Shown piece after piece: positions 21,657 to 55,766 of a stretch of DNA of 64,000 nt. Positions within the stretch are counted from its first letter, which is position 1. Each line of letters starts with the position of its first letter. Where the stretch lies: NCBI GenBank assembly GCA_016185705.1, contig JACPMZ010000003.1, positions 143,929 to 207,928 of the forward strand, written 5' to 3'. A model generated the notes under the pieces. That model did not search any database. It was given only the letters and a program-made list of their open reading frames with translations, and was not told the DNA's origin. A program made the position numbers and the translations under genes. Source of the stretch: Candidatus Woesearchaeota archaeon (GTDB taxonomy: Archaea; Nanobdellota; Nanobdellia; Woesearchaeales; UBA10216).

Positions 21657-21732
21657 TTGTCATTCGTAGCGTTGCGTTATTCGTTTCACTCGTATCTCAG
21701 AGCGTCCACAGGCTTGAGCCTGGCTGCCTGCA
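21657..21732 (-). repeat. displaced duplicate of the ABC permease 3' end
   Basis: 21681-21732 = 22559-22610 (51/52 identical); 24 further bp match at 17/24. Confidence 0.9.
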
Positions 21733-21755
21733 AGGCGGAGAGAATTTCAGAGTTT

Positions 21756-22223
21756 CTAGACTTTTTCCGGATTAAACGTTTTCAGGCCTTCCTTTCTTGC
21801 AGCGATAAGCAGCTTTTTATCTGAGCAAACAAACTCGGTAACCTCGCTTTTGTTCATCAGAGCTGTGTGCAGATGTATCGCATCGTTAACGGCAATGTGA
21901 TGCTTTCCTATAAATTCCAGGCAACCCAGGATAACTCTTGTATCAACGGGTTTGAACTCAAGCATTTTCCTCTCAACAAGCTCTTTTATGTCAAGCACAA
22001 AACGTTTCAGCAACTCTTTGCTTTCCAAAGGCAGCATACGCTTCTGCCGCGCCCACTTGTCCAACACAGAAACCAATTCGCCAATCATAAGGAAAGAAGA
22101 TGTTAGATGGCTTTCTCCCCTCTTCGCCTTTTCAACAAGCCAGTCCATATAGCGAATTCCTTTCTCTTCACGCTCATCGCCATAATATTTGGCGAATGCA
22201 GACGAGTCAACATATATCATCAC
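21756..22223 (-). CDS. VapC/PIN toxin
   Basis: IYVDSSAFAK, VNDAIHLHTA, FVCSDKKL. Confidence 0.9.
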   Translation of the reverse strand: MMIYVDSSAFAKYYGDEREEKGIRYMDWLVEKAKRGESHLTSSFLMIGELVSVLDKWARQKRMLPLESKELLKRFVLDIKELVERKMLEFKPVDTRVILGCLEFIGKHHIAVNDAIHLHTALMNKSEVTEFVCSDKKLLIAARKEGLKTFNPEKV

Positions 22224-22465
22224 TCATCCCTTACTTTCCTCACTAAATCTGACATGCTCTTTCCGGTCTTACGCGTCTTTTTCACTATCCTTCTTATTTC
22301 CTCTATTGAAAGCGCGGTTTCAGCACTATATTTATATGCCAGTTGCCTGATAGCATCCCTTACAACCTCTGACTGAGATTTGTAAAGGCCGGTTTTAATT
22401 AGTTTTCTGGTCATTCTCTTCACTCCTTCAGTCACGTCAGCTGTTAAAGTAACCATTCGCATCAC
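22220..22465 (-). CDS. RHH (CopG/Arc/MetJ) antitoxin
   Basis: LIKTGLYKSQSEVVRDAIR; overlaps the toxin start. Confidence 0.85.
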   Translation of the reverse strand: MMRMVTLTADVTEGVKRMTRKLIKTGLYKSQSEVVRDAIRQLAYKYSAETALSIEEIRRIVKKTRKTGKSMSDLVRKVRDE

Positions 22466-22477
22466 CTAATAGCCTAC

Positions 22478-22493
22478 TAATAGTATACTATTA
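22478..22493. promoter_or_regulatory. 16-bp perfect palindrome TAATAGTATACTATTA, putative antitoxin operator
   Basis: Lies between the TATA-like tract (~22494-22500) and the antitoxin start. Confidence 0.6.
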
Positions 22494-22563
22494 TTTATAT
22501 CTTTTTGCTTCACTCATCCCTCAAAGCATGCTCATTGCCATTCGCAGCTTTGAGATGCTCGTT

Positions 22564-23745
22564 TCACTCGTATCTCAGAGCGTCCACCGGCTTGAGCCTG
22601 GCTGCCTGCATTGCGGGAAGCAGGCCTGAAACTGCTCCTACAAGGAAGCTGAAAATTAACGCAGCTATTACAATAACAGGGTCCACTTTTATGCTCAGGA
22701 AAGGGAAGCCGAATGCCTGCGCGGCAAAGCCGACTGCGAACGCAAGCGCGGTGCCGACTGCTATGCCTATTGCTCCGCCTGCTGCGCCCATGATGCCTGC
22801 TTCTGACAGAAAAATAATTGCTATGTGAGAGTTCTTTGCGCCGACTGCCTTCATGACTCCTATTTCACGGGTTCGCTCAAGCACAGAGGTGAACATTGCA
22901 TTCATTATGCCGACTGCTCCGACGAGCAGCGAGATGGCTGCGATGCCTGCAAACACTGCCTGCACTGCTCCCAGAATGGTGTTAATCTGGCTGAGGATTT
23001 GCTCGGGAGTGAGGATGTCAAAGTCCTCGTCGTCAAAACTTCTCAGCAATTCACGCTCAATCTGCTGCTGCGCATCGCCTACCGAAACGCCGTCCTTGAC
23101 GTGCACGACCATTGCATTAATGTCGTCATGCCTGTTGAATATGTCGCGGGCATCCTGCAGCGGAATGTAAACTCTGCTGTCAATCTCAGTGCCTGTCTCA
23201 GCAAAAACTCCAACAACCCTGAACTTATTATCCTGAAATACCACATTGTTTTTCGCGCTTATAGCTTTATCAAACTCTTCCTCAGCGACAGTGCTGCCAA
23301 GCACCATCACGCCGCTATCGCCAGGAAGGAACAGGCGGCCTTCAGCAGCCATCACATCAAGGTCTGCGAAGCCGCGGTCTGCGAGCTTGACGTCAACAGC
23401 CCAGACCTGGACAAACTTCTCCTCTTTGTTAAATTCAAGAGTGCCTGACTCTATCATCGCAACGTCAACATACTCAACAACGCTTATAGCTTCAGTTTTG
23501 CCAATTATCTCATTCGGCAACGTGAAAAACGAAGTGGGAGGGCCGTGCAAACTTGCAGGGACAATGCGGATGTTTCTGATGCCGAGCTTCTCAAACTGCT
23601 CCTCAATGGCGTTGCTCATGCCCTGGCCGATGGTAATCAGCGAGACTATTGCTGCCACGCCTATCACTATGCCAACAATTGTCAGCCACGAGCGCAGGCC
23701 GCGATGCCTTATGCTGTTCCACGAAAACAACAGGTAGTCTTTCAT
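22564..23745 (-). CDS. ABC transporter permease (MacB/FtsX family)
   Basis: RSWLTIVGIVIGVAA, ERTREIGVMKAVGA, PVDALRYE. Confidence 0.93.
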   Translation of the reverse strand: MKDYLLFSWNSIRHRGLRSWLTIVGIVIGVAAIVSLITIGQGMSNAIEEQFEKLGIRNIRIVPASLHGPPTSFFTLPNEIIGKTEAISVVEYVDVAMIESGTLEFNKEEKFVQVWAVDVKLADRGFADLDVMAAEGRLFLPGDSGVMVLGSTVAEEEFDKAISAKNNVVFQDNKFRVVGVFAETGTEIDSRVYIPLQDARDIFNRHDDINAMVVHVKDGVSVGDAQQQIERELLRSFDDEDFDILTPEQILSQINTILGAVQAVFAGIAAISLLVGAVGIMNAMFTSVLERTREIGVMKAVGAKNSHIAIIFLSEAGIMGAAGGAIGIAVGTALAFAVGFAAQAFGFPFLSIKVDPVIVIAALIFSFLVGAVSGLLPAMQAARLKPVDALRYE

Positions 23746-24926
23746 TTTCTCAATGCATCTGCCGGCTTTAAGCTGGATGCGCGCCTGGCAGGGAAATAAC
23801 CTGAAGCTGCGCCCACTCCGACTGCAAATATTAATGAAAACAAAATCAGCAACGGCTCAATCCTTATCTTCAAAACACCAAATCCTGCCTGAGCTGCGGC
23901 AAAGCCGATAAGGTAAGCGATGCCAATGCCGAAAGCGATGCCGATAATGCCGCCTACAAGGCCTATAAGCCCTGCCTCTATCAAAAAAATCATGGCAATC
24001 TCAGCATTGGTTGCGCCGACAGCTTTCATGATTCCAATATCCCTTATGCGCTCCAGAACAGAGGTGTACATTGAGTTTGCGATGCCCACTGAGCCAACAA
24101 GGAGCGAGATTGCAGCGATGCCTGCAAGAACGCCCTGAAGAATGCCCAGGATAATGCTGAGCTGCTCAATAAGCTGCTCGGGGGTGGAGACCTCAAAGCT
24201 TTCCTCGCTCCTGATCCGCGAAAGCTCAGCTGCTGTGCGGGCTGACACCTTATTCAGGTCAGAGCCGGGCTTGACCTTGCCAACTATAAAAGAAACGCTT
24301 GTGCGGTCGCCAAACAAATCACGCATGACTTCAAGAGGCATGTAAATGTTGGAGTCGTCCTGAGGATTCCCGACTGACTCAACAATGCCCACTACCTCAA
24401 ATTTTTCGCTGTTAATTTCCAGCTTGCTGCCAACGAAAAGCTGCGAATCAAAAAGGTCGTCAGCCACTCTGGAACCAATTACAACCTTGTTTGAATCTGA
24501 CTCAAAAGGCCCGCCTTCACGAAAATCAAGATTAAACTCCTTGAAAGTTTCCACAGCAATCCCGGAATCAAAGCCGGAAATAAGCGCATTGACCGGCTCG
24601 CCCCTGAACTCAACTTTTGCTGACTTGAACAGCATTTCAACAACCAGGCCGTAATCCTTCACCTTCCGGACAGCATCAGCATCATCCACGTTCAGGTTAG
24701 CATCAAAGCCAGGAGGGCCGCCACTGGAGGCAGCGTAAATGCTTATCTTATCGCTTCCAAACGCCTCAAACTGCTCCTGAATGGAAGCTTCCAGGCTGCG
24801 GCTTGCTGACACCAGTGCGATGATGGCAGCTACTCCTATAACTACCCCGATAACAGTCAGCCACGAACGAAGCCGCCTGTGAGAAACGTTTCTCAATACA
24901 ATTACAACATCGTCCTTAAGGCTCAT
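23742..24926 (-). CDS. ABC transporter permease (MacB/FtsX family)
   Basis: RSWLTVIGVVIGVAA, ERIRDIGIMKAVGA, PADALRK; start taken at the ATG overlapping the upstream stop. Confidence 0.93.
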   Translation of the reverse strand: MSLKDDVVIVLRNVSHRRLRSWLTVIGVVIGVAAIIALVSASRSLEASIQEQFEAFGSDKISIYAASSGGPPGFDANLNVDDADAVRKVKDYGLVVEMLFKSAKVEFRGEPVNALISGFDSGIAVETFKEFNLDFREGGPFESDSNKVVIGSRVADDLFDSQLFVGSKLEINSEKFEVVGIVESVGNPQDDSNIYMPLEVMRDLFGDRTSVSFIVGKVKPGSDLNKVSARTAAELSRIRSEESFEVSTPEQLIEQLSIILGILQGVLAGIAAISLLVGSVGIANSMYTSVLERIRDIGIMKAVGATNAEIAMIFLIEAGLIGLVGGIIGIAFGIGIAYLIGFAAAQAGFGVLKIRIEPLLILFSLIFAVGVGAASGYFPARRASSLKPADALRK

Positions 24927-26227
24927 TTTTTCCTGCGAGCAAGGAAATAATAAAGAACCGCGCCAATGCCTGTGAGTATGACAACCGTCCACAAAGTCTT
25001 CTTATACTTAGGCATACTGTTTTTCTGGCAGTCAATCAGCATGAACAGAACAAAGACAGCTGCTATCACCTGCACGCCAAGCATCGCAAACACAACCAAA
25101 TAATTTCGCTGCTTGGCAGCCAAGCCAAACCTGGCAGCGTCCCTTCCAGAATAAATCGGAAGCTGAACGACCTCAGTATTAACAATCTCGCGGTTAAGGC
25201 TGTCCTTATGCGTTAACTTTACGCGCAAATCAATATTCCCCGGCCTGACCTTCGCGGTCCTGATGCTAAATTCAGCAGTCTCAAAATCATCTGCCTCAAG
25301 GTTGCCGAGATAAACCTTTGGAGCTGAAAGAACCCTGTAATCAGCAGTGCTGAGAAGCTCAGCTTCCATAAACCTTATCTCAGCAGGGCCGGTATTGGAA
25401 ACGCTAATCACAACCTCGCCGTTAGAATCAGGCGTGTTAACATCTGATTCCTTAACAGCCAAGCTGTAAACGGGCTTATCATAGACAACAATGCCGATGC
25501 TTGCGTTGCGCAGATGAGACTTGCCTGAGTCATCCAGGTAGTGAAGCTGAACTCCGGTCTTGTAATATGAAGAAGCAGCATCATGGGCAGCAACCAGCTT
25601 AAAAGCAGCAGTTTCCGAAGCGCCGGCAGCAATGCTTTCAATAACCACCTCATTTGAATTGCCCAAAGGAAAAAGCGGAGTGCTGCCCAGGTCCAGCTTA
25701 ACCCGAACATCCTTTACCAAGGACTTGCCGTAATTCTTTAAGGTAACGCCAAAATCAGCCACTGAGCCTGAACTAATATTAATGTCATCAGCAGAAACCA
25801 CACCCAGAATCGCGTCAGCCGGCTCAACGCTTACATCAAAAGCTGTTTTGCTCCAGGCAGCGTTCCCAATCCTGTAGCGCACGTAAAGCGGATGCTCGCC
25901 CTCGTCAGCGCTGCTTTCCACAAATACCCTGTATTTGACAACAAAAGCACTTGCACCCTTCTGGCTGGCGTCAAGACTGCCTATATTCTTCAATGCAGGC
26001 CCAAGGATTGTAAAGGGGTATTCTGCAAGAAGCTCCACCTCGACATCATCAACAGTGGCAGAAATGTTGTTATCCACCCTAAACCGGAGCTCAACATCAT
26101 CGCCCGGCTCAACCGGGTCAGGATTCTGATTTATAAGCTTAACATCAATCTGAGGCCCTTTAACCTCTGCACTGGCTGCGGCAGCCAGCATCAATGCTGC
26201 AAAAACTGCAATCGCAAAAAGTTTCAT
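24923..26227 (-). CDS. COG1361-type S-layer/Ig-like exported membrane-anchored protein
   Basis: Signal peptide, NQNPDPVEPG, Ig-like repeats, C-terminal TMs; typical partner of MacB-type ABC systems. Confidence 0.8.
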   Translation of the reverse strand: MKLFAIAVFAALMLAAAASAEVKGPQIDVKLINQNPDPVEPGDDVELRFRVDNNISATVDDVEVELLAEYPFTILGPALKNIGSLDASQKGASAFVVKYRVFVESSADEGEHPLYVRYRIGNAAWSKTAFDVSVEPADAILGVVSADDINISSGSVADFGVTLKNYGKSLVKDVRVKLDLGSTPLFPLGNSNEVVIESIAAGASETAAFKLVAAHDAASSYYKTGVQLHYLDDSGKSHLRNASIGIVVYDKPVYSLAVKESDVNTPDSNGEVVISVSNTGPAEIRFMEAELLSTADYRVLSAPKVYLGNLEADDFETAEFSIRTAKVRPGNIDLRVKLTHKDSLNREIVNTEVVQLPIYSGRDAARFGLAAKQRNYLVVFAMLGVQVIAAVFVLFMLIDCQKNSMPKYKKTLWTVVILTGIGAVLYYFLARRKK

Positions 26228-26898
26228 GCCAATCGGCCGTCCTTCAGGTGCTCAATGCGGTCAGCGAGCTTAGCCAAACTGCGGTCATGCGTAATCATAA
26301 CAACCGTTTTTCCCTGCCTGTTCAAGCCGGCAATGAGCTTCATTATCTCCCTGCCAGTCCTGGAGTCAATGTTGCCAGTTGGCTCGTCAGCCAGTAAAAC
26401 TTCAGGGTCGTTGGACAAAGCCCTGGCTATGGCAACGCGCTGCTGCTGCCCGCCTGAAAGCTCAGACGGCTTGTGCATTAAGCGCTCGCCCAGACCAACA
26501 GAAACAAGAAGCTGCCTGGCGCGCTCACGCCTTGCGGAAACAGCAACGCCCTGAAACATCATGGGCAGCTCAACATTCTCCAGGGCAGAAAGGTTTGCAA
26601 GCAGATTAAACTGCTGGAAAACAAAACCAATCTTCCTGCCCCTGATGACAGCGAGCTGGCTCTCAGAAAGCCTGCTGATATCGTGATCATCAAGATAAAC
26701 GCTGCCTTTCGTAGGATAATCCAAAGCTCCAATCATGTTCATGGCTGTTGACTTCCCGCTGCCAGAAGGCCCTTCAATCGCAACAAACTCGCCAGAGCTT
26801 ACTTCAAAACTAAGGCCGCGCAGCGCTTCAACCTTAACCTCACCCATCTGATATATTTTCCAGACATTCTCAAGGCGGATAACGCTCTTTCCGGGCAT
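26224..26898 (-). CDS. ABC transporter ATP-binding protein (LolD/MacB type)
   Basis: GPSGSGKST, LSGGQQQR, LADEPTGN. Confidence 0.95.
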   Translation of the reverse strand: MPGKSVIRLENVWKIYQMGEVKVEALRGLSFEVSSGEFVAIEGPSGSGKSTAMNMIGALDYPTKGSVYLDDHDISRLSESQLAVIRGRKIGFVFQQFNLLANLSALENVELPMMFQGVAVSARRERARQLLVSVGLGERLMHKPSELSGGQQQRVAIARALSNDPEVLLADEPTGNIDSRTGREIMKLIAGLNRQGKTVVMITHDRSLAKLADRIEHLKDGRLA

Positions 26899-26943
26899 AA
26901 CTGCAATTCTGGACGCTGCTATTTAAGAATTTTACTGGTTTTT

Positions 26944-27083
26944 GGTAATTTCAAGTTAAGTGGCAAAACTGTCGCACACTGCTCTGATTTTTTTCTCCCC
27001 CCCTTAAAAAATAAGGGGGGAGAAAAAAATCAGCCAAGCAGGCATCGGCAAGCTCAGGATTGCAGGACACACAACTTGACATT
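26944..27083. mobile_element. MITE family A copy lacking the last 3 bp
   Basis: Identical to 17867-18006; GGTTTTT on both flanks (partial TSD). Confidence 0.88.
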
Positions 27084-27090
27084 GGTTTTT

Positions 27091-27270
27091 CAGCATCTCC
27101 GCAGGCAACCTGCTTTGCCTGCTTGCAACCACGCCCTGTTTCCTCCTCTGTCGTTATTGCTTTGCGCTGCTTTTTTCCCTCCCTTAAATTTTTTGGGAGG
27201 GAAAAAAAGCAGATGGCAGTTATTCAAAGGGAAAGCGTGGCAGGAAAATAGTCCGGTTGCTGAGATACTG
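27091..27270. mobile_element. MITE-like family B element, long variant with nested hairpin
   Basis: CAGCATCTCCGCA...TGCTGAGATACTG; hairpin 27167-27212. Confidence 0.7.
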
Positions 27271-27316
27271 CGTCAAAACAATAATAATATAAACAATCAC
27301 TCAGCTACACGCCCAA

Positions 27317-27913
27317 ATGCCAATACGCCCGGAAGAAAGCAAGTGGAAAAAAAGAACATTCACTATAGTAATTTTCATAGTTCTGTTCAGCAGCGTAATC
27401 GGATTTACGTTCAGCGCAGTGCCGTTCGGGCTGCAGGGCGGGGATGATAAGATAAAGTACAACGGCATTGAGTTTTTTCCGACGCAGACAGGGCTTGCCA
27501 CGCAAGTAGACGGGCAAATCTTTGAGTTTAGCCATTATCCGGAGGATTTAGCTGATGAGGACGTTGCAGCAATTGCGGACAGCATAAATTCAGCGGCGAT
27601 GATTTACGCAACTTCAGATGCAAACAGCAGCATCGCAGGAGCAATAAGCAGCATGCAATACGATGTAAGCAGGCTCATTGGCGCTGACACTTTTGTCCAG
27701 GTTGCATTTACAGCCGAAAATGAATTCGGGAAAGAAATAATAACCTGCGAAGACGCAACCGAATCAATTCCTGTGCTGTACTTCAACTTTACCAATGCCA
27801 CGACAGAAATAACTGAAGAAGCCAACTGCATTATAGTAAACGCAGAGTCTGAAACCGCTTTAAGCAGGATAAAAGACAAAACAATGTACGAGCTATTGGG
27901 TGTAAAGCCATGA
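27317..27913 (+). CDS. membrane-anchored exported hypothetical protein
   Basis: N-terminal TM; IITCEDAT..NCIIV motif shared with the next gene. Confidence 0.75.
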   Translation: MPIRPEESKWKKRTFTIVIFIVLFSSVIGFTFSAVPFGLQGGDDKIKYNGIEFFPTQTGLATQVDGQIFEFSHYPEDLADEDVAAIADSINSAAMIYATSDANSSIAGAISSMQYDVSRLIGADTFVQVAFTAENEFGKEIITCEDATESIPVLYFNFTNATTEITEEANCIIVNAESETALSRIKDKTMYELLGVKP

Positions 27914-28491
27914 AAATCAGCAAGAGCTCGATAATTGTGGCAGCAGCGGTTTTAATTATAATTGCAGGATTTGCCGCCCTGCTGCTAATCTCTGAAAATG
28001 GCGACCGGGCAGACTACAACGGCTACCAGTTTGTAAACGAAAATGGCCTTTGGCAGACAGAATGGGAACGCGAAGGACAGATTTACGTGCTGGACTTCCG
28101 CCACCATCCTGAAGAAGTTGAGAGCATTCCGATAACAGGGCAGACAGACATAAGGTTCCAGCTGGAGCCAGTGTACATCACTATCGACCCTTCTGGCGAA
28201 CAACCCGATCAAAAATACCTCGCCCTGGCAGCAATTGACCTTGCACGCAAACTGACAGAGCCGTTTGAAAGAGAGGTGCAGGCAGCATGCACGCGAAACG
28301 AAACAGAAGCATGCGAAACACGCCCAATCGTAACATGCGAGAACACAAACAGCACAGTCATCTACCTAAAATCAGCTGAGCAAACCAAAATAGAGCTTCT
28401 GGGCAACTGCGCTGTCATCCAGGGGAACGGGGAAAGCATAGTCATGGCAGCAGAAAAGGCAATCTACCAGTGGCTGGGGATAATGGATTAG
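27910..28491 (+). CDS. membrane-anchored exported hypothetical protein (paralog of upstream gene)
   Basis: N-terminal TM; YNGYQF, HPEEV, IVTCENT..NCAVI. Confidence 0.75.
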   Translation: MKISKSSIIVAAAVLIIIAGFAALLLISENGDRADYNGYQFVNENGLWQTEWEREGQIYVLDFRHHPEEVESIPITGQTDIRFQLEPVYITIDPSGEQPDQKYLALAAIDLARKLTEPFEREVQAACTRNETEACETRPIVTCENTNSTVIYLKSAEQTKIELLGNCAVIQGNGESIVMAAEKAIYQWLGIMD

Positions 28492-29177
28492 GACCACTTA
28501 GCCCTGTCTTCTTTGTCAAGAACTCTGGCTGTTGACAACACCTGAACAATCAGAACAATCCAAATGAAAGCTGCAGCAACCGTGCCAACAACGTCCAGAA
28601 AGGTGAATGGGTAAAGCGTCCGGGCAAATTCAAATACAAAAAGCACCGGATTTTGGGCAAAGAAAAGCAAAACGCTGAACCCTGCTCCAATCAGCCGTGC
28701 CTCAGTCGGCCCAAGCGGCCCCAACGAAAGCTCAAAGCTGCCGGTAACGCTCGCTTTCAGGAAAGCATGAATCATAAGCAAAAGAAAACCCAAAGACACC
28801 CACAGCCACGCAGCCGTCAACGTAATGCCTGAAGCAGTCAAGCCACCAAGGATAACTGCGGCAGAAACTCCATCAAGCACGTGGTCAACGTAATGCCCGT
28901 AATTAGGACGGGGCGTTTTGCGAATCCGCGCAATCCTGCCGTCCAGCGAATCGCCAAACCAATGAACAAAATAAAGAGCAGCAGCCGCAAGATAAAGCAC
29001 TTTGAACTGAGGCGCGAAGAAATACGCAGTGCCAATGCCAATGGCAGCAAGCAGCGCAATCAAAGTAAGCGCGTCAGGACCTGCAAATTCCGGAATAAAT
29101 TTCACTAATTTATCCAACAAAGCATTTTCTGCTTTTGCCGTAATTGACAAGTTGACCCTCTTCATCACTCCTTGCAA
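28488..29177 (-). CDS. CDP-alcohol phosphatidyltransferase family protein
   Basis: DSLDGRIAR...GHYVDHVLD signature. Confidence 0.9.
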   Translation of the reverse strand: MQGVMKRVNLSITAKAENALLDKLVKFIPEFAGPDALTLIALLAAIGIGTAYFFAPQFKVLYLAAAALYFVHWFGDSLDGRIARIRKTPRPNYGHYVDHVLDGVSAAVILGGLTASGITLTAAWLWVSLGFLLLMIHAFLKASVTGSFELSLGPLGPTEARLIGAGFSVLLFFAQNPVLFVFEFARTLYPFTFLDVVGTVAAAFIWIVLIVQVLSTARVLDKEDRAKWS

Positions 29178-29562: not shown

Positions 29563-29605
29563 CGCAATAGGCAATGAGCGAAATTTTAAAAAGTTATTGC
29601 CAACT

Positions 29606-29748
29606 GGCAATTTCAAGTTAAGTGCCAAAACCACGCTTGCTCTGAGCTGATTTTTTCCTCCCCCTATAAATTTTTAAGGGGGAGAAAAAAATCAGCAAAG
29701 AAGGCATCGGCAATCTCAGGACTGCAGGACACAAGACTAAACATTGCC
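29606..29748. mobile_element. MITE family A, divergent complete copy with perfect 9-bp TSD
   Basis: GGCAAT...ATTGCC ends, 143 bp; TTGCCAACT at 29597-29605 and 29749-29757. Confidence 0.88.
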
Positions 29749-30324: not shown

Positions 30325-30903
30325 ATGGCATTCGTAACGTTCGGAGAAATAATAGACTTAGTGATAATGATAGCTGCTGTTGGCTTCATATTCAAAGACC
30401 GTGTTCAGATACGGCCAACCGGCGATTACGACCCGCTGACCGATTTCAGGAAGCAGCGCTTTTTCAGCGAGGGATTCAAAAATGCGGTAATCGTAACTGC
30501 GCCTGCCATCGCGCTGCATGAGCTTGGGCATAAAGCAGCGGCGATGGCTTACGGGTTTGATGCGACGTTCCATGCTGCATACACGTGGCTGGGTATAGGA
30601 GTGGTGCTGAAGCTTCTGAACTTTCCGTTCCTGTTCTTTGTGCCGGGGTATGTAACGTATTCTGCTGCAAACATTGAACCTCTTGTCAGGGCGCTGATAG
30701 CTTTTGCAGGGCCACTGGTCAATCTGCTGCTATTCCTGTTTGCCACAGCTGCATTAAAGCAGGGCTGGCTGAAGAAATACGCGCAGCACCTTGTGCTTAC
30801 AAAGCAGATAAACATGTTCCTGTTCATATTCAACATGCTGCCATTCGGCTTCTTTGACGGAGCGCAGGTGTTCAGCAGTTTGATGCAAGCGTTTGGCGGG
30901 TAG
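30325..30903 (+). CDS. site-2 protease family (M50) membrane metalloprotease
   Basis: HELGH, AGPLVN, FNMLPFGFFDG. Confidence 0.9.
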   Translation: MAFVTFGEIIDLVIMIAAVGFIFKDRVQIRPTGDYDPLTDFRKQRFFSEGFKNAVIVTAPAIALHELGHKAAAMAYGFDATFHAAYTWLGIGVVLKLLNFPFLFFVPGYVTYSAANIEPLVRALIAFAGPLVNLLLFLFATAALKQGWLKKYAQHLVLTKQINMFLFIFNMLPFGFFDGAQVFSSLMQAFGG

Positions 30904-30904: not shown

Positions 30905-31117
30905 ATGGAAATACGCTATACTTTTCATAGCGAAGAGCAAATTAAGGAAAGAAAGATTGAGAAAGTCTGGGTTGAAGAAACAATAAAACATCCTGATGAA
31001 ACAGAGAAAGAAGGCAAGAACAAGTACTATGCCAGAAAGACCTTAAATGGCATCACCCTTGAAGTGGTTTATGTAAAAGAAAAGTATATAAAGGTAGTGA
31101 CCGTTTACCCTGTGTGA
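30905..31117 (+). CDS. DUF4258-like (RelE-fold) putative toxin
   Basis: YTFHSEEQIKERKI...VVTVY; coupled to a DUF2283 gene. Confidence 0.8.
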   Translation: MEIRYTFHSEEQIKERKIEKVWVEETIKHPDETEKEGKNKYYARKTLNGITLEVVYVKEKYIKVVTVYPV

Positions 31118-31323
31118 TGAAAATACGATATGACCCTGATGCAGATGCCATGTATATAAAGCTAAGAGATACCGAAGTAGCACGCACTAAAAAAGTTGAT
31201 AAGCACACTATACTGGATTATGATAAGGATGGCAGCTTGATTGGAGTAGAGCTTCTTTTTGTTAAAGAAAACAACCCCGGCCTTTTGAGAGAGTTTCAGG
31301 TAGAAAATTTAGTGCCTGCATAA
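31114..31323 (+). CDS. DUF2283 domain putative antitoxin
   Basis: KIRYDPDADAMYIKL...ILDYDKDGSLIGVEL. Confidence 0.88.
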   Translation: MMKIRYDPDADAMYIKLRDTEVARTKKVDKHTILDYDKDGSLIGVELLFVKENNPGLLREFQVENLVPA

Positions 31324-31332: not shown

Positions 31333-31371
31333 CGGCTTCTTTGACGGAGCGCAGGTGTTCAGCAGTTTGAT
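31333..31371 (+). repeat. displaced 39-bp duplicate of the M50 protease near-3' segment
   Basis: Identical to 30846-30884. Confidence 0.92.
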
Positions 31372-48563: not shown

Positions 48564-48901
48564 GTGCGCTGCTGAATCTTTTTCCCGGTCAGCTGCTTAA
48601 GGCCCCTGGTGAAATATTCCATGCAGTCCAGGGCGCAGAACGAAATACGCTTTTTGCTCTCAGCTGTTCCGAAAATCAGAGTGAATTCTGCTGCAACCCG
48701 CAAGTTAACGCCAGAGCCGCAGGTGCCGCAGGTTCTTGATTCAGAAGCGCTGATCTCCCTGAGCTTGTTGGAAACCACCTGCTTAATGCCAGCTCCTCCT
48801 GCATAAAGTTCGCGCTGGAGGTCAATCAGCTCCTCGTAATCCAAAGATGATACAACGTCCGTGAACTTTTTCTTAGCAGCCACCGTGAACCAGTATACCA
48901 A
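48560..48901 (-). CDS. hypothetical metal-binding protein (CxxC..FCxxxC, TRASH-like)
   Basis: TCGTCG and SFCALDC motifs. Confidence 0.7.
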   Translation of the reverse strand: MVYWFTVAAKKKFTDVVSSLDYEELIDLQRELYAGGAGIKQVVSNKLREISASESRTCGTCGSGVNLRVAAEFTLIFGTAESKKRISFCALDCMEYFTRGLKQLTGKKIQQRT

Positions 48902-48989
48902 TTACTATACTTATATATAAATATTGCGATTGGTTTTTGTTGGCTTTATTACCCAAGCTGCGCTAAACCACAGTTGCCTTTTCTTCACC

Positions 48990-49042
48990 CTGCTTTCCCT
49001 TTTCTCCTCCCATAATTTTAGGGAGGGGAAAGGGGAAAGCAG
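48990..49042. repeat. CCTCCC/GGGAGG intergenic hairpin
   Basis: 22-bp imperfect stem, loop ATAATTTTA. Confidence 0.75.
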
Positions 49043-49120
49043 CCGAAAAAGAAACTGCAACCCAGATAAATTTGTCCAAATGAAAAACTATATTAATCCC
49101 TGTTTTCAGTTGCAGAATCA

Positions 49121-51760
49121 ATGACTGATTATTATCAGCTTAGTCCTGAGAAAGCGCTTACGGAATTAAAAACTTCCCTGAGCGGGCTGAGCGATGCTGA
49201 GGCATCAAAGCGGCTCACGGCTTACGGGCCCAACCAGCTGAAGGAAGGCAAGGGCGTCTCCCACTTTAAGCTTTTTCTTGAGCAGTTCAACAATTTTCTG
49301 GTGTGGATACTGCTTGCGGCAGTAGCAGTTTCTGCTGCCATCGGCGACATTGTGGAGAGCATAGTCATAGTTGTAATCGTAATAATGAACGCTGTCATCG
49401 GCTTTGTGCAGGAATACCGCGCAGAAAAAGCGATAGATGCGCTGAAGAAGCTTGCCGGGCTGCACGCAGACGTAATAAGAAGCGGCGAGCGAAGGCAGAT
49501 AGACGCCAAGCAGCTTGTGCCCGGCGACATCATTTTCCTTGAAACAGGCGACAAGATTCCGGCAGACTGCAGGCTGCTTGAAGAATCCAATTTTGAAGTG
49601 CAGGAAAGCAGCCTGACCGGCGAGTCAGCAGCTGTCGCCAAAGACATTGCTGCCATAAGGGATGCGCCAATCGCCGACCAGAAGAACATGGCTTTCTCAG
49701 GAACAATAATTGTGAGGGGCAGGGCAAAGGCAGTGGTTGCAAAGACCGGCATGCAGACAGAAATAGGCAGGATAGCAAATCTAATCCAGACAGCAAAGGA
49801 GGAAATGACTCCACTGCAAAAACGGCTTGAAAAGTTTGCAAAGCAAATCGGAATTCTGACGATGGCGATAGCAGCCATAGTGTTCGCTGCCACGGTGCTG
49901 CGCGGAGAGGACATGCTGAAAATGTTTGAAACGTCCGTCAGCTTGGCAGTGGCTGCAATACCTGAAGGGCTGCCTGCTGTTGTTGCCATGTCGCTTGCAC
50001 TGGGCGTGCAGCGGATGATAAAAAGAAACGCGCTGGTAAGGAAGCTGCCCTCAGTGGAAACGCTTGGCTCAACCACAGTAATAGCGACAGACAAAACAGG
50101 CACGCTGACGATGGATAAAATGACAGTAAAGCGGCTTTACGTAAACGGCAAAACAATAGAAGTGAAGGGCGAAGGATATTCGGTTGATGAACCGCTTGCC
50201 CTTGAGGAGGACGAAAAGCTGCTGCTGAGGGCAGGCGCATTGTGCAATGACGCAGCGCTGACCTCAAAAGGCATATCAGGAGACCCTACTGAAGCAGCGC
50301 TGCTCGTGTCAGCAGCCAAAGCAGGAATGAAAAAGGAAGAGCTGGACAGCAGATTCAGGCGGGTGGATGAGCTTCCTTTTGACTCAGACAGAAAGCGCAT
50401 GTCAACCGTGCACGAAGTCGGAAAACAGCGCATAATGTACACGAAGGGAGCGCCTGACGTTGTGCTGAAGCTGTGCAGCAGAATCCACACTGGCGGAAAA
50501 GCAAGGAAACTTACATCATCTGACAGAAGCAGGATTCTGAAAGCCAACGCAGAATTTGCATCCTCTGCACTGCGCGTGCTTGGATTCGCGTACAAGCCGG
50601 CTGCCGGAAAAGCAGCTGAGAAAGAACTCATATTCATAGGGCTGCAGGCAATGATAGACCCTCCCAGACCAGAGGTAAAGGAAGCAATAGAGCGGTGCGA
50701 GGCAGCAGGCATAAGGGTGGTAATGATAACAGGCGACCACAAGCTGACTGCTGTTGCGATAGCAAAGGAACTCGGAATAACAGGCAAGGCAGTAACAGGC
50801 GTTGAGCTGGACAGCATACAAAACCTGGAGGAAAGAGTGCATGAAATAGGGGTGTATGCGAGGGTAAGCCCTGAGCACAAAATAAAGATAGTGAATGCCT
50901 TAAAGAAAAAAGGGCAGGTAACAGCAATGACAGGCGACGGCGTTAACGATGCGCCTGCACTAAAAAGCGCAAACATAGGCATAGCCATGGGGATAACGGG
51001 CACTGACGTTGCAAAGGAAGCATCAAAAATGGTGCTGACAGACGACAATTTTGCGTCAATAGTAAACGCGGTTGAAGAAGGCCGCGGCATATACGACAAC
51101 ATAAAAAAATTCATCTACTTCCTGCTGTCAAGCAACCTCGCAGAAGTTTTGGTTGTCTTTCTGGCAATACTCGCAGGGCTCAAGCTGCCCCTGCTTGCCA
51201 TACAGATACTGTGGGTCAATCTCATAACAGACGGGCTTCCTGCGGTAGCATTAGGCGTGGAGCCGGTAGCGAAAGACGTCATGAAGAAAAAGCCCAGAAA
51301 GCTGAGCGAAGGAATAATAACAAAAGCCATGGCCATACGGCTGCTTCTGACAGGCGCAACAATAACCGCAGGAACACTCGGAATATACGTATGGGCGCTG
51401 TACAGCAAAGGATGGGCTTGGGGAGCTGAATTGCCGGGCAGCAGCCCTGTTTATGTGTATGCAATAACAATGGCATTTACAGCACTGGTAGTGTTTGAGA
51501 TGCTTAATGCAATAGCAGCAAAATCAGAGGAAAAAAATATGCTCACAAAGATGTTCAGCAACAAATGGCTGCTCCTTGCAATACTTTCTTCCCTGCTGCT
51601 GCAATTTGCAGTAATATACACGCCGCTAAGCAACTACTTCCACACAACAGCGCTGGCATTAAGCGATTTGGCAATAATATTTGCGGCAGCTTCATCAGTG
51701 ATAGCCGTGGATTCGCTGTACAAACTGGTCAAGAACAGGATGAGTGTGCAGACTGCATAA
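49121..51760 (+). CDS. P-type (2A) Ca2+-transporting ATPase
   Basis: TGES, PEGL, DKTGTLT, KGAPD, TGDGVNDAP. Confidence 0.96.
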   Translation: MTDYYQLSPEKALTELKTSLSGLSDAEASKRLTAYGPNQLKEGKGVSHFKLFLEQFNNFLVWILLAAVAVSAAIGDIVESIVIVVIVIMNAVIGFVQEYRAEKAIDALKKLAGLHADVIRSGERRQIDAKQLVPGDIIFLETGDKIPADCRLLEESNFEVQESSLTGESAAVAKDIAAIRDAPIADQKNMAFSGTIIVRGRAKAVVAKTGMQTEIGRIANLIQTAKEEMTPLQKRLEKFAKQIGILTMAIAAIVFAATVLRGEDMLKMFETSVSLAVAAIPEGLPAVVAMSLALGVQRMIKRNALVRKLPSVETLGSTTVIATDKTGTLTMDKMTVKRLYVNGKTIEVKGEGYSVDEPLALEEDEKLLLRAGALCNDAALTSKGISGDPTEAALLVSAAKAGMKKEELDSRFRRVDELPFDSDRKRMSTVHEVGKQRIMYTKGAPDVVLKLCSRIHTGGKARKLTSSDRSRILKANAEFASSALRVLGFAYKPAAGKAAEKELIFIGLQAMIDPPRPEVKEAIERCEAAGIRVVMITGDHKLTAVAIAKELGITGKAVTGVELDSIQNLEERVHEIGVYARVSPEHKIKIVNALKKKGQVTAMTGDGVNDAPALKSANIGIAMGITGTDVAKEASKMVLTDDNFASIVNAVEEGRGIYDNIKKFIYFLLSSNLAEVLVVFLAILAGLKLPLLAIQILWVNLITDGLPAVALGVEPVAKDVMKKKPRKLSEGIITKAMAIRLLLTGATITAGTLGIYVWALYSKGWAWGAELPGSSPVYVYAITMAFTALVVFEMLNAIAAKSEEKNMLTKMFSNKWLLLAILSSLLLQFAVIYTPLSNYFHTTALALSDLAIIFAAASSVIAVDSLYKLVKNRMSVQTA

Positions 51761-51810
51761 TTGCCGAACCCTCGCAACCTTAATAAACAACAATAGTTTG
51801 CCTTATTCTT

Positions 51811-53616
51811 ATGAACCCCGGATTTTATCAGGAACTGATTCAGGCAATAAAGCACAAGCCGCAGGATGCTTCCAGAATAAAGCTATCCCTAAGCAGAAAG
51901 CACTGCCTGAAAAAAATTCCGTCAAACATAGAAATATTCCTCAACAGCAGCGAAGAAGATGCGAAGCAGCTTAAACTCGTAACAAAGCCGGTAAGAACGC
52001 TAAGCGGGGTCGCAACAATATCCATCATGACAGCGCCTGCCGGATGCCCGCACGGCAAATGCACGTTCTGCCCAGGCGGACCCAACAGCATTTTTGGAGA
52101 CGTGCCGCAAAGCTACACAGGAAAAGAGCCAGCGACCATGCGCGCAATCCGCAACCAGTTTGACGCTTACCTGCAAATATTCTCGCGGCTTGAACAATAT
52201 GCGGTCATAGGACAGGCGTTTGACAAGGTCGAACTGATTATACAGGGCGGAACATTCCCGAGCATGAACGTGGAGTACCAAAACAGTTTTATTGCAGACG
52301 CATACAGGGCAATGAACGACTTTTCTGCGGAATTTTTTGCTGACGGAGAACTAAACCTGCAAAAATTCAAGGAATTCTTTGAGCTGCCAGGCGATTTCAA
52401 GGAAGAAGGGCGGGTGAAGCGGGTTAAAGAAAAAATACTGAAGCTGAAAAACAAAAACATTGCGCCTGCTGCCATTGCCATTGATGTTAAAACCAACATA
52501 GATGCTGCGAATAAAAACAGCAACGGCTATGAAATAAAAAATGACGGCAGCGATAAAATGAAAAATAATGCCAGTTATAACAGCGGCAGCGAACTGGAAA
52601 AAGAACAGAAAAGAAACGAAACAGCAAAGATAAGATGCATCGGACTGACGATAGAAACAAAGCCGGACTGGGGGATGCTTGAAGAAGGCAACCAAATGCT
52701 GAAGCTGGGATGCACGAGAGTTGAGCTCGGCGTACAGTCAGTTTATGAGCAGCCGTTAAAGCTGACCAACCGGGGCCACACGCTTTCTGATACTGTAAAA
52801 TCAATGCAAATCCTGAAAGATTTGGGATTCAAAATAAACGCGCACTACATGCTCGGGCTGCCGGGCGTAAAGCGCGGGGATGAACTCGCAGGGCTGAAAC
52901 AGCTTTTTTCTGACCCTGACTTCAAGCCGGACATGCTAAAAATATATCCGCTGCTCGTCATAAGAGGAACACCCCTTTTCATCCAGTGGCAGCGCGGGCA
53001 ATACAACCCGATATCTACGGCAGAGGCAGCGGAGATAATATCCGAAGCAAAGCGCTTCATCCCGAAATGGGTGAGGATAATGAGGATAAACAGGGATATT
53101 CCCACTTATGTGACATCCGCAGGAATAGACAGAACCAACCTGAGGCAATACGTTCAGGAACTGCAGCAAAAGAAAAACATTATCTGCAACTGCATCAGGT
53201 GCAGGGAAGCCGGAAGGAACAAAAAGTTTGAAAGCGCTGAAATAACAGTAACAGAATACGAAGCATCCGGAGGAAAAGAATTCTTCATAGCAGCCGAAGA
53301 TACCGAAAACAATGTTTTGCTCGGCTTTTGCAGGCTGCGATTTCCGCATCAGCAGCTGAGAAAAGAAATCACAGCAGGCACAGCAATGATAAGAGAGCTG
53401 CACGTGTATTCTGCAGCGGTAGCTCTGGGAAAAAAAGCCAAAGAAAACGAAATCCAGCATCGCGGCTACGGCAAAAAGCTGATGGAAAAAGCAGAGCAAA
53501 TAGCAAGGGCGCACAGCAAAAACAAAATGCTCGTAATCTCAGGCACAGGCGCAAAAGAATACTACAAAAAGCTGGGGTATGATTATGACGGCGCATATGT
53601 GGGGAAAGAGCTATGA
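51811..53616 (+). CDS. elp3: tRNA uridine(34) acetyltransferase/radical SAM Elp3
   Basis: CPHGKCTFCPGG, RVELGVQS, RELHVY, QHRGYGK. Confidence 0.95.
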   Translation: MNPGFYQELIQAIKHKPQDASRIKLSLSRKHCLKKIPSNIEIFLNSSEEDAKQLKLVTKPVRTLSGVATISIMTAPAGCPHGKCTFCPGGPNSIFGDVPQSYTGKEPATMRAIRNQFDAYLQIFSRLEQYAVIGQAFDKVELIIQGGTFPSMNVEYQNSFIADAYRAMNDFSAEFFADGELNLQKFKEFFELPGDFKEEGRVKRVKEKILKLKNKNIAPAAIAIDVKTNIDAANKNSNGYEIKNDGSDKMKNNASYNSGSELEKEQKRNETAKIRCIGLTIETKPDWGMLEEGNQMLKLGCTRVELGVQSVYEQPLKLTNRGHTLSDTVKSMQILKDLGFKINAHYMLGLPGVKRGDELAGLKQLFSDPDFKPDMLKIYPLLVIRGTPLFIQWQRGQYNPISTAEAAEIISEAKRFIPKWVRIMRINRDIPTYVTSAGIDRTNLRQYVQELQQKKNIICNCIRCREAGRNKKFESAEITVTEYEASGGKEFFIAAEDTENNVLLGFCRLRFPHQQLRKEITAGTAMIRELHVYSAAVALGKKAKENEIQHRGYGKKLMEKAEQIARAHSKNKMLVISGTGAKEYYKKLGYDYDGAYVGKEL

Positions 53617-54566
53617 AACTAGACCCCCTCCCAGAAGCAGAAAAAGCATTTGCAAAGCCGGCATTTGAAAAAAGGTTCAGGCAGCTGCTTGGCAGCAGGT
53701 ATGATGAGTTCATGAAGTATTCGCTTTCCTACATCACCAAAAGCATTCGCGTAAACACCTTGAAGACCGCTGTTGATGAGGTTAAGCAGCGCCTGCATAA
53801 ACAAAATTTTTCTCTTAAGCAGATTCCGTGGTGCAGGGAAGGATTCTGGGTTTCGGGGGAACGTACTGATTTGGGAAACCTGACTGAACACTTTCTCGGC
53901 TACTTTTACGTGCAGGAGGCAGCGAGCATGATACCTGCAGCTGTCCTGAACCCGAAGCCCGGAGATATTGTACTGGATATGTGCGCGAGCCCAGGCAGCA
54001 AGACAACGCAGATGGCAGCCATGATGGCCAATCGCGGATTAATTGTGGCAAACGACATCAGCGGGGCAAGAATGAAACCATTGGGGCTGAATTTGCAGCG
54101 CACAGGAACAAGCAACGCAGTTGTAACGATTATGCGCGGACAGCGCATCAATAAAAAAGGAGTGCAGTTTGACAAGATACTCGTGGATGCTCCGTGCAGC
54201 GGCACAGGCACGATAAGGAGAAATCCTGAAACTCTGCAGGTATGGAATCCCGGAATGGTGAAGCGGCTTAGCAAAACGCAAAAGTCGTTGGTTGCGTCAG
54301 CGTTTGAAGCGCTGAAAGAAGGAGGCGAAATGGTGTACAGCACATGCAGCGTTGAGCCTGAAGAAAACGAAGAAGTAATTGATTACCTGCTGAACAAATG
54401 CAGAAATGCTGCCGTGGAAAAAATTGATTTGCCGATAAAAAAATCAGAACCAATTGAAGCGTTTGAAGGCAAAAATTACAGCAGCGAAGTGAAGAAATGC
54501 CTGCGCATATGGCCGCAGGACAACAATACGGAAGGATTTTTTGTTGCGAAGATTGCGAAAAATTAA
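53613..54566 (+). CDS. RsmB/NOP2 family RNA m5C methyltransferase
   Basis: DMCASPGSKT, DAPCSGTG, YSTCS, EGFFVAK. Confidence 0.94.
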   Translation: MKLDPLPEAEKAFAKPAFEKRFRQLLGSRYDEFMKYSLSYITKSIRVNTLKTAVDEVKQRLHKQNFSLKQIPWCREGFWVSGERTDLGNLTEHFLGYFYVQEAASMIPAAVLNPKPGDIVLDMCASPGSKTTQMAAMMANRGLIVANDISGARMKPLGLNLQRTGTSNAVVTIMRGQRINKKGVQFDKILVDAPCSGTGTIRRNPETLQVWNPGMVKRLSKTQKSLVASAFEALKEGGEMVYSTCSVEPEENEEVIDYLLNKCRNAAVEKIDLPIKKSEPIEAFEGKNYSSEVKKCLRIWPQDNNTEGFFVAKIAKN

Positions 54567-54570
54567 TGAT

Positions 54571-54912
54571 TTATCGTATTTGCAATTCCTTCAACAGCTC
54601 TGTAACATATGCCGCAATTTCTTCAAGCCGAACATTTTCGTATCCTTTGGCTATTCTTGCCTTTAACTCTTTAGTAACATTTGCAACAACTTTATTCTGA
54701 ATAAAGGAAGCGTCTTTTTCAGGAAGAGGATTAACTGCAGGGTTGATTTTTTCTCTGCAATCTCCCGCTATTCTCAACGCGTTTAGCGCTTCTTTTTGGT
54801 AATACTTCTTCAGACCAGTATCCTCAATTGAATCTCCCAAAATCCTGTGAACAACAACAGTCGTTGAATTGCCAACACACACCCGAATAAATTTTTTCCT
54901 ATTTTGACTCAT
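54571..54912 (-). CDS. small hypothetical protein, partner of the nucleotidyltransferase gene
   Basis: Overlaps the upstream stop; AT-richer; lies inside the direct-repeat cassette. Confidence 0.7.
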   Translation of the reverse strand: MSQNRKKFIRVCVGNSTTVVVHRILGDSIEDTGLKKYYQKEALNALRIAGDCREKINPAVNPLPEKDASFIQNKVVANVTKELKARIAKGYENVRLEEIAAYVTELLKELQIR

Positions 54913-55678
54913 TTTCAACACCATCTAAAATCCTTTTTAGCAATTTCCTATGAAAAAGCGCGTATTTTGACCGAAATCCCGCTTCAACAGCATTTTCTTT
55001 AATTTTTATAACGCTCGCTTTTCCAAAATGCCGCTCAATTTCATTATCAACCAAAGAGGCATTCAGGGGCCTGTTGTCCAGAAAACGTGCAATAGCAACA
55101 GCGTTTCTTACCAACTTGTATTTTTCCCGCCCATTTAAAAAATCAAAGCTGTCAATCAATGCTTTACTTTCCAATAACTGCAAATCCAATAATTTGTAAT
55201 TTTTTGTCATGTTTTTAGGCATAATAAGGCGTTTTTTTGCAACAAACCTGCTTAGTAGCATTTGAAAAAGCGGATCCCTGTCCATTCCTTTCAGCAACTC
55301 TCTTAACGGCAGGCAAATCAGGTGAATATCAATTCCAAGTGCAGCTTTGAAATGCTTTTTTATGGCAGCATTACCTATGCTTTTCTCCGTCAAAACAACC
55401 GTATCGATATCTTCAAATTCAAAGCCCTCTTCCAAAAAAGAACCTGCCACGAGCACGTTATCTACATGTTCGAAATAGCTAAAAATTTCATCAACTATTA
55501 TCTTTTTTATTGGCTCCAGATGCTGCACATGATAGCGGTAAATTTCCGCAATTGCTTTGCCTTGAAGCGGCGTTATGGCTACAGCGACGCCCCTTTCAAA
55601 CCCAGGCGCACGTATCTTTGGGACATAAATCTGGTCCATCACGCTACCCTTGCTTATTGTTCCGGTTATCATTACCAT
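54899..55678 (-). CDS. AbrB-like N-domain plus minimal nucleotidyltransferase (MNT) protein
   Basis: GTISKGSVMDQIYVPK; GSFLEEGFEFEDIDTVVL (GS..DxD). Confidence 0.72.
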   Translation of the reverse strand: MVMITGTISKGSVMDQIYVPKIRAPGFERGVAVAITPLQGKAIAEIYRYHVQHLEPIKKIIVDEIFSYFEHVDNVLVAGSFLEEGFEFEDIDTVVLTEKSIGNAAIKKHFKAALGIDIHLICLPLRELLKGMDRDPLFQMLLSRFVAKKRLIMPKNMTKNYKLLDLQLLESKALIDSFDFLNGREKYKLVRNAVAIARFLDNRPLNASLVDNEIERHFGKASVIKIKENAVEAGFRSKYALFHRKLLKRILDGVENESK

Positions 55679-55679
55679 A

Positions 55680-55697
55680 TTACGTAAAATTACGTAA
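55680..55697. promoter_or_regulatory. tandem palindromes TTACGTAA x2 (10-bp period), putative operator
   Basis: Between the TATATATA box (~55701) and ATG 55678. Confidence 0.6.
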
Positions 55698-55731
55698 TGA
55701 TATATATAAAAAGCTTTCGGTTTTCTCTTAA

Positions 55732-55766
55732 AGGACAGCAATACGGAGCTTTTTTGTTGCGAAGAT
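55732..55766 (+). repeat. displaced duplicate of the m5C methyltransferase near-3' segment
   Basis: Matches 54517-54553 at 33/37 positions. Confidence 0.85.

Follow-up and report, generated by a model that had tools for sequence, protein, structure and literature searches.

Most toxin-antitoxin (TA) modules and other small modules of defence or addiction carry no gene for their own mobility, and it has long been unclear how such modules move. SSV- and pNOB8-type archaeal elements and bacterial genomic islands target the 3' ends of tRNA or protein genes, carry a replacement end and encode an integrase. In the rhs and contact-dependent inhibition (CDI) toxin-immunity 'orphan' arrays, a new module enters by homologous recombination and the old gene end is displaced downstream. 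Integron cassettes, including those of archaeal integrons, are small and TA-rich, come with or without a promoter, and have no recombinase of their own. Insertion of restriction-modification (RM) units with long target duplication was reportedly described by Nobusato et al. in 2000 (Gene 259:99). For RM units in bacteria, the repeats left by such insertion have been read as duplicated target, and breakage by the RM enzymes has been proposed (Furuta, Abe & Kobayashi 2010, PMC2853133); in the part of that paper on which we draw, the screen retained no archaeal case. Here we analysed a window of 64,000 nt from the genome of a Candidatus Woesearchaeota archaeon (GCA_016185705.1; contig C14, positions 143929-207928), in which three two-gene cassettes each sit behind an intact host gene and are followed by a direct repeat of the end of that gene. 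The genome is of the DPANN, Woesearchaeota type, was assembled from metagenomes (1.23 Mb, 14 contigs, 95.6% complete) and encodes TFIIE-alpha. Positions are given in the window or, for other places, on contigs C1-C14. The relatives compared are G001, G002 and G003 of the same genus, G014 and G005 of two other genera, and G004 and G020. The basis is thus one genome together with fragments of relatives, and genes are simple open reading frame (ORF) calls.

The three units had been pointed out in an earlier note made from the letters alone, and the repeat alignments place them where it said, with offsets of 878, 487 and 1213-1215 nt between the two copies. Its estimate that each repeat starts about 47-58 nt before the stop codon agrees with the measured 53, 58 and 50 nt before the end of the host stop codon; relative to that codon, the proximal copies extend from -53 to +32 in module 1, from -58 to -19 in module 2 and from -50 to -13 in module 3. 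As the note had also held, the host genes are intact at all three modules, and the three repeats have no sequence in common. Pfam identifies the host genes as coding for a permease (FtsX/MacB), a peptidase (M50) and a methyltransferase (RsmB/F). Each repeat is strictly two-copy in the genome. Pfam scans of the cargo revealed no recombinase or transposase domain in the cassettes (reverse transcriptase was not among the families searched), and the PF00589 matches of the genome are on other contigs. We interpret the units as recombinase-free addiction-type cassettes, mostly TA, which are inserted behind conserved host genes by homology-anchored insertion-duplication via host recombination, a reading to which we give a probability of about 0.6.

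The cassettes share features with each of the systems named above. As in integrative elements, the target gene stays intact through a copy of its end that was brought in, and the repeats corresponding to attL and attR differ as alleles; unlike those elements, which have their own integrase and one att core per integrase, the cassettes have neither. Entry of a module at a conserved stretch displaces a gene end, as in the rhs/CDI arrays; in those arrays the variable toxin tip belongs to the same locus, whereas the displaced end here is that of an unrelated housekeeping gene (S10, RsmB, MetK, FtsX or M50). Unlike integrons, the cassettes have no IntI/attI platform and no shared attC-like imperfect palindrome, and they are scattered rather than arrayed. 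With the RM units of Furuta et al. (PMC2853133, in the part drawn on here) they have in common a selfish post-segregational-killing module without a mobility gene, long direct repeats (>30 bp) of variable length, and a repeat that is single-copy at the empty site of a related genome and often overlaps the 3' end of a neighbouring gene. Repeat lengths here range from 17 to 111 nt, and the limits used in that screen (insert <20 kb, repeat >30 bp, as given in the same part of the paper) enclose all cases save two, with repeats of 19 and 17 nt. In contrast to those RM units, so far as that part describes them, the cargo here is mainly TA, the host is an archaeon, and the copies behave as alleles of different lineages; therefore, homologous recombination with a carried gene end is favoured over target duplication. 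The cassettes also resemble Campbell-type insertion and pop-out in archaeal genetics, in which a single short-homology crossover gives direct repeats and the repeats recombine out (PMC5684531, in the part consulted); the procedure described there is a laboratory one with engineered DNA, whereas a natural cassette cycle with a borrowed gene end would operate here. Our literature searches returned no paper on TA cassettes with gene-end duplications, and none of the papers on 'long target duplication' dealt with TA by title or abstract. What is new here is that the cargo is biased towards TA, that the host is an archaeon, that different genera reuse the same gene ends, and that an allele test speaks for a carried gene end.

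The allele test was applied to ten diverged repeat pairs, five from this genome and five from relatives, a small pool of short C-terminal stretches with 162 codons in all. Synonymous differences amounted to 54.5 on 107 sites and non-synonymous differences to 31.5 on 379 sites, giving a ratio of non-synonymous to synonymous change (dN/dS) of 0.10 (binomial P = 5e-8 when tested against the mixture that a constrained copy and a neutrally decaying copy would give). An earlier pool, which included a repeat that was later removed (repeat 'M', see below), gave a dN/dS of 0.16. The stop codon is retained in 8/10 distal copies, and the distal copies still read as the C-terminus of the host protein. The two S10 ends of G002 encode an identical 28 residues with 15 synonymous differences between them, and the two FtsX ends of G001 have Leu and Arg codons that are synonymous but separated by double substitutions. 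Because the differences are mostly synonymous, both copies appear to have evolved as working gene ends in different genomes, one of them arriving with the cassette. Judged by these sequences, the diverged repeat copies are alleles of a gene end from different lineages and not a target duplication made on the spot that then decayed. The earlier note had left the route of insertion as either trans-acting or homology-driven, and the finding that the two copies are alleles under purifying selection supports the homology-driven branch.

The same branch is supported by the distribution of the module 3 cassette, which occurs behind RsmB in each of three genera and shows greater similarity than the RsmB gene does. 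Besides this genome, G014, G005 and a third public genome have the cassette behind RsmB, followed by a distal copy of the RsmB end. Compared with G014, the cassette of this genome has 83.4% identity and its RsmB only 67.3%, while this RsmB is 72% identical to those of the cassette-free congeners. Because the cassette is more alike than RsmB, it moved between genera after the split of the hosts, and to the same gene end. Sliding windows along the RsmB gene of this genome revealed no G014-like tract, which gives no support to an extended homologous anchor within the gene for module 3. In a set of 13 public loci, the gene pair of module 3 also occurs behind DsbA-like genes (3 loci) and behind other genes; one of the loci shows a repeat of 73 nt (99%) at a further site. 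Meanwhile, single gene ends are used by different cargo. The S10 end is followed by HicAB in this genome and in G002, by DUF433 and DUF5615 in G003, and by DUF5615 in G005, the cargo being bracketed in each case; the distal S10-end copy is present behind the HicAB of G002, and in G004 a 25-nt copy of the S10 end is located about 1.9 kb from S10. Among eight S10-end alleles, proximal and distal, of this genome, G002, G003 and G005, 26-39 of 45 positions are in common and no pair is near-identical. At the FtsX site, G001 carries other cargo bracketed by its own FtsX-end duplication, and G003 carries yet another gene.

In the mechanism that we propose, the incoming DNA would bring a short copy (~20-110 nt) of the gene's 3' end as present in the donor lineage, and its simplest form would be a small circle or concatemer made up of the cassette and one gene-end copy. 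A single crossover at the resident gene end, carried out by host machinery (RadA and Hjc are encoded) and presumably RadA-dependent, would amount to a Campbell-type insertion-duplication. The product would be an undamaged host gene followed by the cassette and, behind it, a second gene end, now displaced; the gene would be kept intact because the homology segment includes its end. Recombination between the direct repeats could later free the cassette and leave one hybrid repeat. In this way the borrowed gene end might act as a portable att site by which the cassette finds that conserved gene in another strain, species or genus. A variant of the mechanism would combine one homologous anchor with one illegitimate joint (homology-facilitated illegitimate recombination). 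In Sulfolobus acidocaldarius, arms of 30-50 bp suffice for integration and pop-out (PMC5684531, in the part consulted), and the repeat lengths found here are therefore plausible substrates. The genome encodes RadA, within a 799-aa frame, as well as a RadB-like protein and Hjc. At C1 73390-75417, the Rad51/RadA domain comes in two parts (profile positions 1-103 and 100-243) that are about 1.3 kb apart in that single frame, which suggests that RadA is intein-bearing.

A long target duplication could also be made on the spot by illegitimate insertion, through staggered breaks with fill-in or through template switching. Such an origin agrees with the perfectly identical repeats of 39, 111, 55, 19 and 17 nt, and the geometry accords with the published criteria, as the RM unit of this genome shows. 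This unit, at C14 84406-88074 and thus about 56 kb before the window, consists of an N6 methylase (500 aa), an AccI-like endonuclease (311 aa), an EVE-domain protein (133 aa) and a 63-aa ORF. On both sides of it stands a repeat of 55-63 nt, which takes in the promoter of the next methyltransferase gene and the first 17 nt of that gene. The unit is an archaeal example of Kobayashi-type RM insertion. However, the diverged pairs differ as coding alleles, and in module 1 the part of the repeat derived from the coding sequence (3 mismatches in 53 nt between the copies) is about four-fold better conserved than the part behind the stop (8 in 32 nt). In addition, the same cassette with a spare gene end recurs in three genera. 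Duplication of the target on the spot is therefore an improbable origin for these cassettes.

A site-specific (tyrosine) recombinase encoded elsewhere in the genome could act on the cassettes in trans, the attP of each cassette including the replacement gene end. The attL/attR-like geometry fits this possibility, repeats of the allele type are also typical of integrase-borne elements, and one cassette, with HEPN and MNT genes, has the 3' part of a tRNA-like gene on both sides. PF00589 (tyrosine recombinase) matches two full genes and some fragments, located only on C8, C5 and C3, among them one non-Xer-like integrase (459-aa frame, C5) and the integrase fragments on C3; none is in a cassette. 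PF00239 (serine recombinase) and PF01385 (IS605-type) have no match in the genome, and PF01609 (DDE) has sub-threshold matches only. Against an integrase acting in trans, at least 12 unrelated repeat sequences of 17-111 nt are without a common core, no integrase is found in or beside any cassette, and in different genera unrelated cargo is found at one and the same gene end. No 7-8-mer occurs in more than 3/15 repeats, and each repeat is two-copy in the genome, except for one 38-nt motif common to two loci. Taken together, we consider a trans-acting integrase unlikely. As for DNA transposons or miniature inverted-repeat transposable elements, no terminal inverted repeats pair the ends of any of the three window inserts, and the length of the duplication is variable (17-111 nt).

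The cassettes might instead be eroded remnants of larger integrase-bearing islands or proviruses, and the integrase fragments on C3 do lie near another repeat pair. Comparison with congeners, however, shows insertions of the size of a cassette rather than eroded islands. Empty sites exist in congeners for all three modules: M50/pyrG in G002, RsmB in G001, G002 and G003, and FtsX in G002. At the M50 site, the inserted DNA is the cassette alone, 448 nt between the repeats; pyrG is 45 nt from M50 in G002 and about 200 nt from it in G001, where no cassette is present, and G003 has a different gene of 225 aa there, with no M50-end repeat. RsmB abuts the convergent next gene in 3/3 congeners. At the FtsX site of G002, the stop codons of TFIIE and FtsX are 32 nt apart, and therefore both the RHH/PIN cassette and a further pair of small genes (138 and 101 aa) found at this site in our genome are absent there. 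No phage or plasmid genes occur in any insert scanned, and the compact unit is conserved across genera. We thus regard an origin by erosion of islands as very unlikely. For the MetK cargo, none of 24 relatives provided an empty site, the 23 that were matched having the gene only. The DUF4258/DUF2283 pair lies in G020 between two sugar-nucleotide enzyme genes, with no flanking repeat (score 12, null 12.5). Three other loci compared for this cargo contain a partial cassette or no clear one.

A scan of the whole genome was carried out for repeats of gene ends. For each of 1163 ORFs of at least 80 aa, the last 130 nt together with 70 nt downstream were aligned with the next 120-4500 nt, and the reversed query served as null. 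Scores of at least 16 were obtained for 57/1163 genes, against 3 with the reversed query, and scores of at least 20 for 28/1163, against 0; the three window modules score 57.5, 39 and 25.5. Neighbouring paralogues, dispersed elements and repeats of the tandem or protein kind were set aside; repeat-bracketed inserts enclosing whole genes were kept and their cargo was annotated by Pfam and NCBIfam. Among the 16 bracketed inserts, 12 are TA-type, one is an RM insert and three carry other cargo. The TA-type inserts comprise the three of the window (RHH/PIN, DUF4258/DUF2283 and the MNT-like pair); RHH-UPF0175 with a PIN-like gene behind a UPF0175 gene (111-nt repeat, 100%); HicB with a broken HicA behind ribosomal protein S10; TumE with a TumA-like gene behind MetK; UPF0175 with a PIN-like gene behind a DHH phosphoesterase; a HicB-like gene; two further PIN pairs; AbiEi/AbiEii; and HEPN with MNT behind the 3' part of a tRNA-like gene. 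The RM insert is a type II RM unit with an EVE protein, and the other or unknown ones hold TPR, a DsbA-like protein with one of 219 aa, and proteins of 65 and 162 aa. The inserts are 0.45-3.6 kb in size, with repeats of 95, 39 and 35-37 nt in the window and of 111, 64, 60, 78 and 63 nt elsewhere. A mirror scan of the 5' ends of genes gave 26/1157 genes with a score of at least 20 against 0 in the null. On inspection, most of these are due to paralogues, to tandem repeats or to dispersed elements, and only the RM unit and one PIN pair are clear cases of bracketing.

Chance similarity, or an artefact of a 14-contig assembly in which the third repeat is short (17 nt exact), can be dismissed as extremely improbable, the reversed-query null being 0/1163 at score 20. 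The repeats are not assembly artefacts either, as contigs from runs of two studies carry the region and the same architecture is seen in independently assembled relatives. Logan contigs from groundwater metagenomes of the two studies (six sets) carry the window region, one independent contig spanning window positions 21000-26971 with zero differences. The earlier note had named four outcomes that would speak against it, namely lack of genome-wide enrichment around TA modules, lack of empty sites in relatives, artefactual repeats, and descent from eroded islands. The opposite was found on all four counts: gene-end repeats are far above the reversed-query null with 12/16 annotated bracketed inserts of TA type, empty sites are present, the repeats are no artefact, and relatives show insertions of cassette size rather than eroded islands.

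Several observations weigh against homology-anchored insertion. The identical repeats (39, 111, 55, 19 and 17 nt) carry no allele signal and would fit target duplications equally well. None of the distal S10 alleles corresponds to a proximal one among those sampled (own, G002, G003 or G005), and no donor is therefore identified. In module 2, the sequence past the distal copy is not recognisably M50 tail, save for an in-frame stop 3 codons on; this weakens a plain Campbell event, because such an event predicts the tail behind the distal copy. Neither a circle joint nor an empty-site joint turned up among the Logan contigs; those of module 2 end exactly at the 39-nt repeat and are uninformative on such joints. 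Most TA loci are without a detectable repeat: among 22 PIN-domain matches, four have a flanking match with a score of at least 18, one of which is a dispersed palindrome, leaving 3/22 unique. Similarly, in other genomes the MNT-like cassette has a flanking repeat at only 3/12 assessable loci. The sorting into bracketed inserts, paralogues and dispersed repeats was made by eye, and eight more repeat pairs are unclassified. Finally, the 38-nt motif brackets two different cassettes, AbiEi/AbiEii and a PIN pair, without explanation. Its copies, which are outside the window and about 90% alike, are located at C12 24279-24316 and 26218-26255 and at C14 27775-27813 and 28530-28569; the cargo is antisense to the motif at both loci, and the motif is not a recognisable gene end.

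The features of the three modules are collected in Table 1. In module 1, the downstream part of the proximal repeat matches the native region downstream of FtsX in G003, G001 and G002. The two small genes between TFIIE and the distal FtsX copy are probably another cargo at the same FtsX hot spot. In module 2, the C-terminal tail of the M50 peptidase is similar to the tails in G001, G002 and G003, and the distal repeat, continuing in frame to its stop, adjoins the conserved pyrG promoter. Modules 1 and 2 conform to the layout predicted for type II TA systems, RHH_1 with PIN and DUF4258 with DUF2283, each pair with a 4-nt overlap. The label 'AbrB-MNT', given to module 3 in the earlier note, found no support in family searches: 'AbrB' is unsupported, and 'MNT' is a lead from the ESM Atlas only. 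Neither protein of the module 3 cargo has a Pfam (E up to 10) or NCBIfam match. The nearest ESM Atlas clusters of the MNT-like candidate carry NTP_transf_2 (score 0.97), and an AlphaFold2 model of this protein, from a 3-sequence alignment, was too poor for use (pLDDT 45.7). The partner gene follows the MNT-like gene in 12/13 related loci.

Table 1. Host genes, cassette genes and gene-end repeats of the three modules, with the adjoining small genes, in window positions
Feature	Position	Strand	Evidence and remarks
Two small genes (138 aa + 101 aa) between TFIIE and distal FtsX copy	20884..21596	+	No family matches; absent from G002
Module 1 distal repeat: second FtsX gene end, stop codon retained	21644..21738	.	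84% over 95 nt, spacing 878
PIN-domain (VapC-type) toxin	21756..22223	-	Pfam PIN, E 9e-9; PF01850 genome match
RHH (CopG-type) antitoxin	22220..22465	-	Pfam RHH_1, E 3e-7
Module 1 proximal repeat: FtsX last 53 nt + stop + ~40 nt downstream	22522..22616	.	Repeat alignment
Host gene 1, FtsX/MacB-type ABC permease, intact	22564..23745	-	Pfam MacB_PCD + FtsX; orthologues in G001, G002, G003
Host gene 2, M50-family peptidase, intact	30325..30903	+	Pfam Peptidase_M50
Module 2 proximal repeat, 39 nt, within coding sequence	30846..30884	.	Repeat alignment
DUF4258 protein, putative toxin	30905..31117	+	Pfam DUF4258, E 1e-7; weak EndoU match
DUF2283 protein, putative antitoxin	31114..31323	+	Pfam DUF2283, E 2e-17
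Module 2 distal repeat, 39 nt, 100% identical, spacing 487	31333..31371	.	Repeat alignment
Host gene 3, RsmB/F-type rRNA methyltransferase, intact, vertically inherited	53613..54566	+	Pfam; nucleotide identities along whole gene
Module 3 proximal repeat	54517..54553	.	Repeat alignment
Partner protein, 117 aa (113 aa from conserved start), no known family	54571..54924	-	No Pfam/NCBIfam match
MNT-like nucleotidyltransferase candidate, 259 aa from ATG; 280 aa, TTG ORF reaching 55741	54899..55678	-	ESM Atlas lead
Module 3 distal repeat, RsmB end with 2-nt deletion	55732..55766	.	17 nt exact inside 35-37-nt match, 89%, spacing 1213-1215

Contigs of the metagenome runs also vary around modules 1 and 2. 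In runs X3 and X5, contigs fuse adjacent FtsX paralogues, with a joint from window position 22851 to 24094 that skips 1242 nt and has a short side of 24 nt. The joint could reflect variation in the population, with the permease gene fused or deleted, or else a contig artefact induced by the repeat. The depth of the contig with the module 2 insert is 25.5 against 37-40 in the flanks in one run, and 16.3 against 12 in another. Just past the distal RsmB copy of module 3, two dispersed repeats of 44-50 nt are found at window positions 55859-55902 and 55991-56040. Copies with 95-100% identity are located on C8 (~100019-100110, beside a PIN gene), C1, C2 and C3, with many in G003, and the ~400 nt holding these repeats are missing from the empty RsmB sites of the congeners.

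Two inserts outside the window have features of their own. In the HicAB pair linked to S10, the HicA gene (C8 97018-97221) has an early stop and an internal gap and HicB is intact; on this reading of the sequence, HicA looks like a toxin decaying after insertion. The tRNA-like gene at C14 26690-26812, on the minus strand, has a long insert in its anticodon region and was missed by ARAGORN; its 3' part is duplicated 1375 nt away, around the HEPN and MNT pair.

Other repeats of the genome are dispersed. Repeat 'M' (C8 233445-233542, behind a DUF3368 gene) was removed from the class of gene-end repeats after blastn revealed a dispersed element; copies of this element, about 96 nt long and 92-98% alike, are located at that position, at window 60710-60805 and at C7 24839-24904. 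Tandem arrays of a ~47-nt hairpin unit are found at C7 69406-69641 and 72655-72800, around a 3-kb block of three genes, and a related array occurs at C4 40404-40654 and 46917-47149. Another dispersed element, of about 150 nt, has a central G/C-rich palindrome between T/A runs and occurs as pairs of copies 2.5-5 kb apart (window 26921-27084 and 29583-29746; C1 96593-99276; C7 118264-121593; C8 113568-118843 and 189244-191899). The summed contig depth over this element is about 25 times that of its flanks.

Among mobile TA modules, a single small genome yields a dozen junctions, to which its relatives add empty sites, reused sites and swaps of cargo. The synonymous-difference test separates a duplication made from the target from an imported, foreign allele of the gene end, a distinction left open in the literature, and it favours the imported allele. 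Tentatively, and at somewhat less than even odds, ultra-small archaea may host a general recombinase-free gene-end homing cycle, in which addiction and defence cassettes, with a portable 3' end as their only targeting device, would move in and out by host homologous recombination across species and genera; conserved gene ends (S10, RsmB, FtsX, MetK, M50 and a tRNA) would then be common landing sites at which cargo can be exchanged. As a signature of recently moved genes in metagenome-assembled genomes, one could use a gene-end fragment whose divergence is of the coding type. If the proposed insertion is true, host homologous recombination and a borrowed gene end of 20-110 nt would suffice to make cassettes site-specific and able to cross genera, and hot spots behind conserved genes would be explained in reduced genomes that are almost without transposases or integrases.

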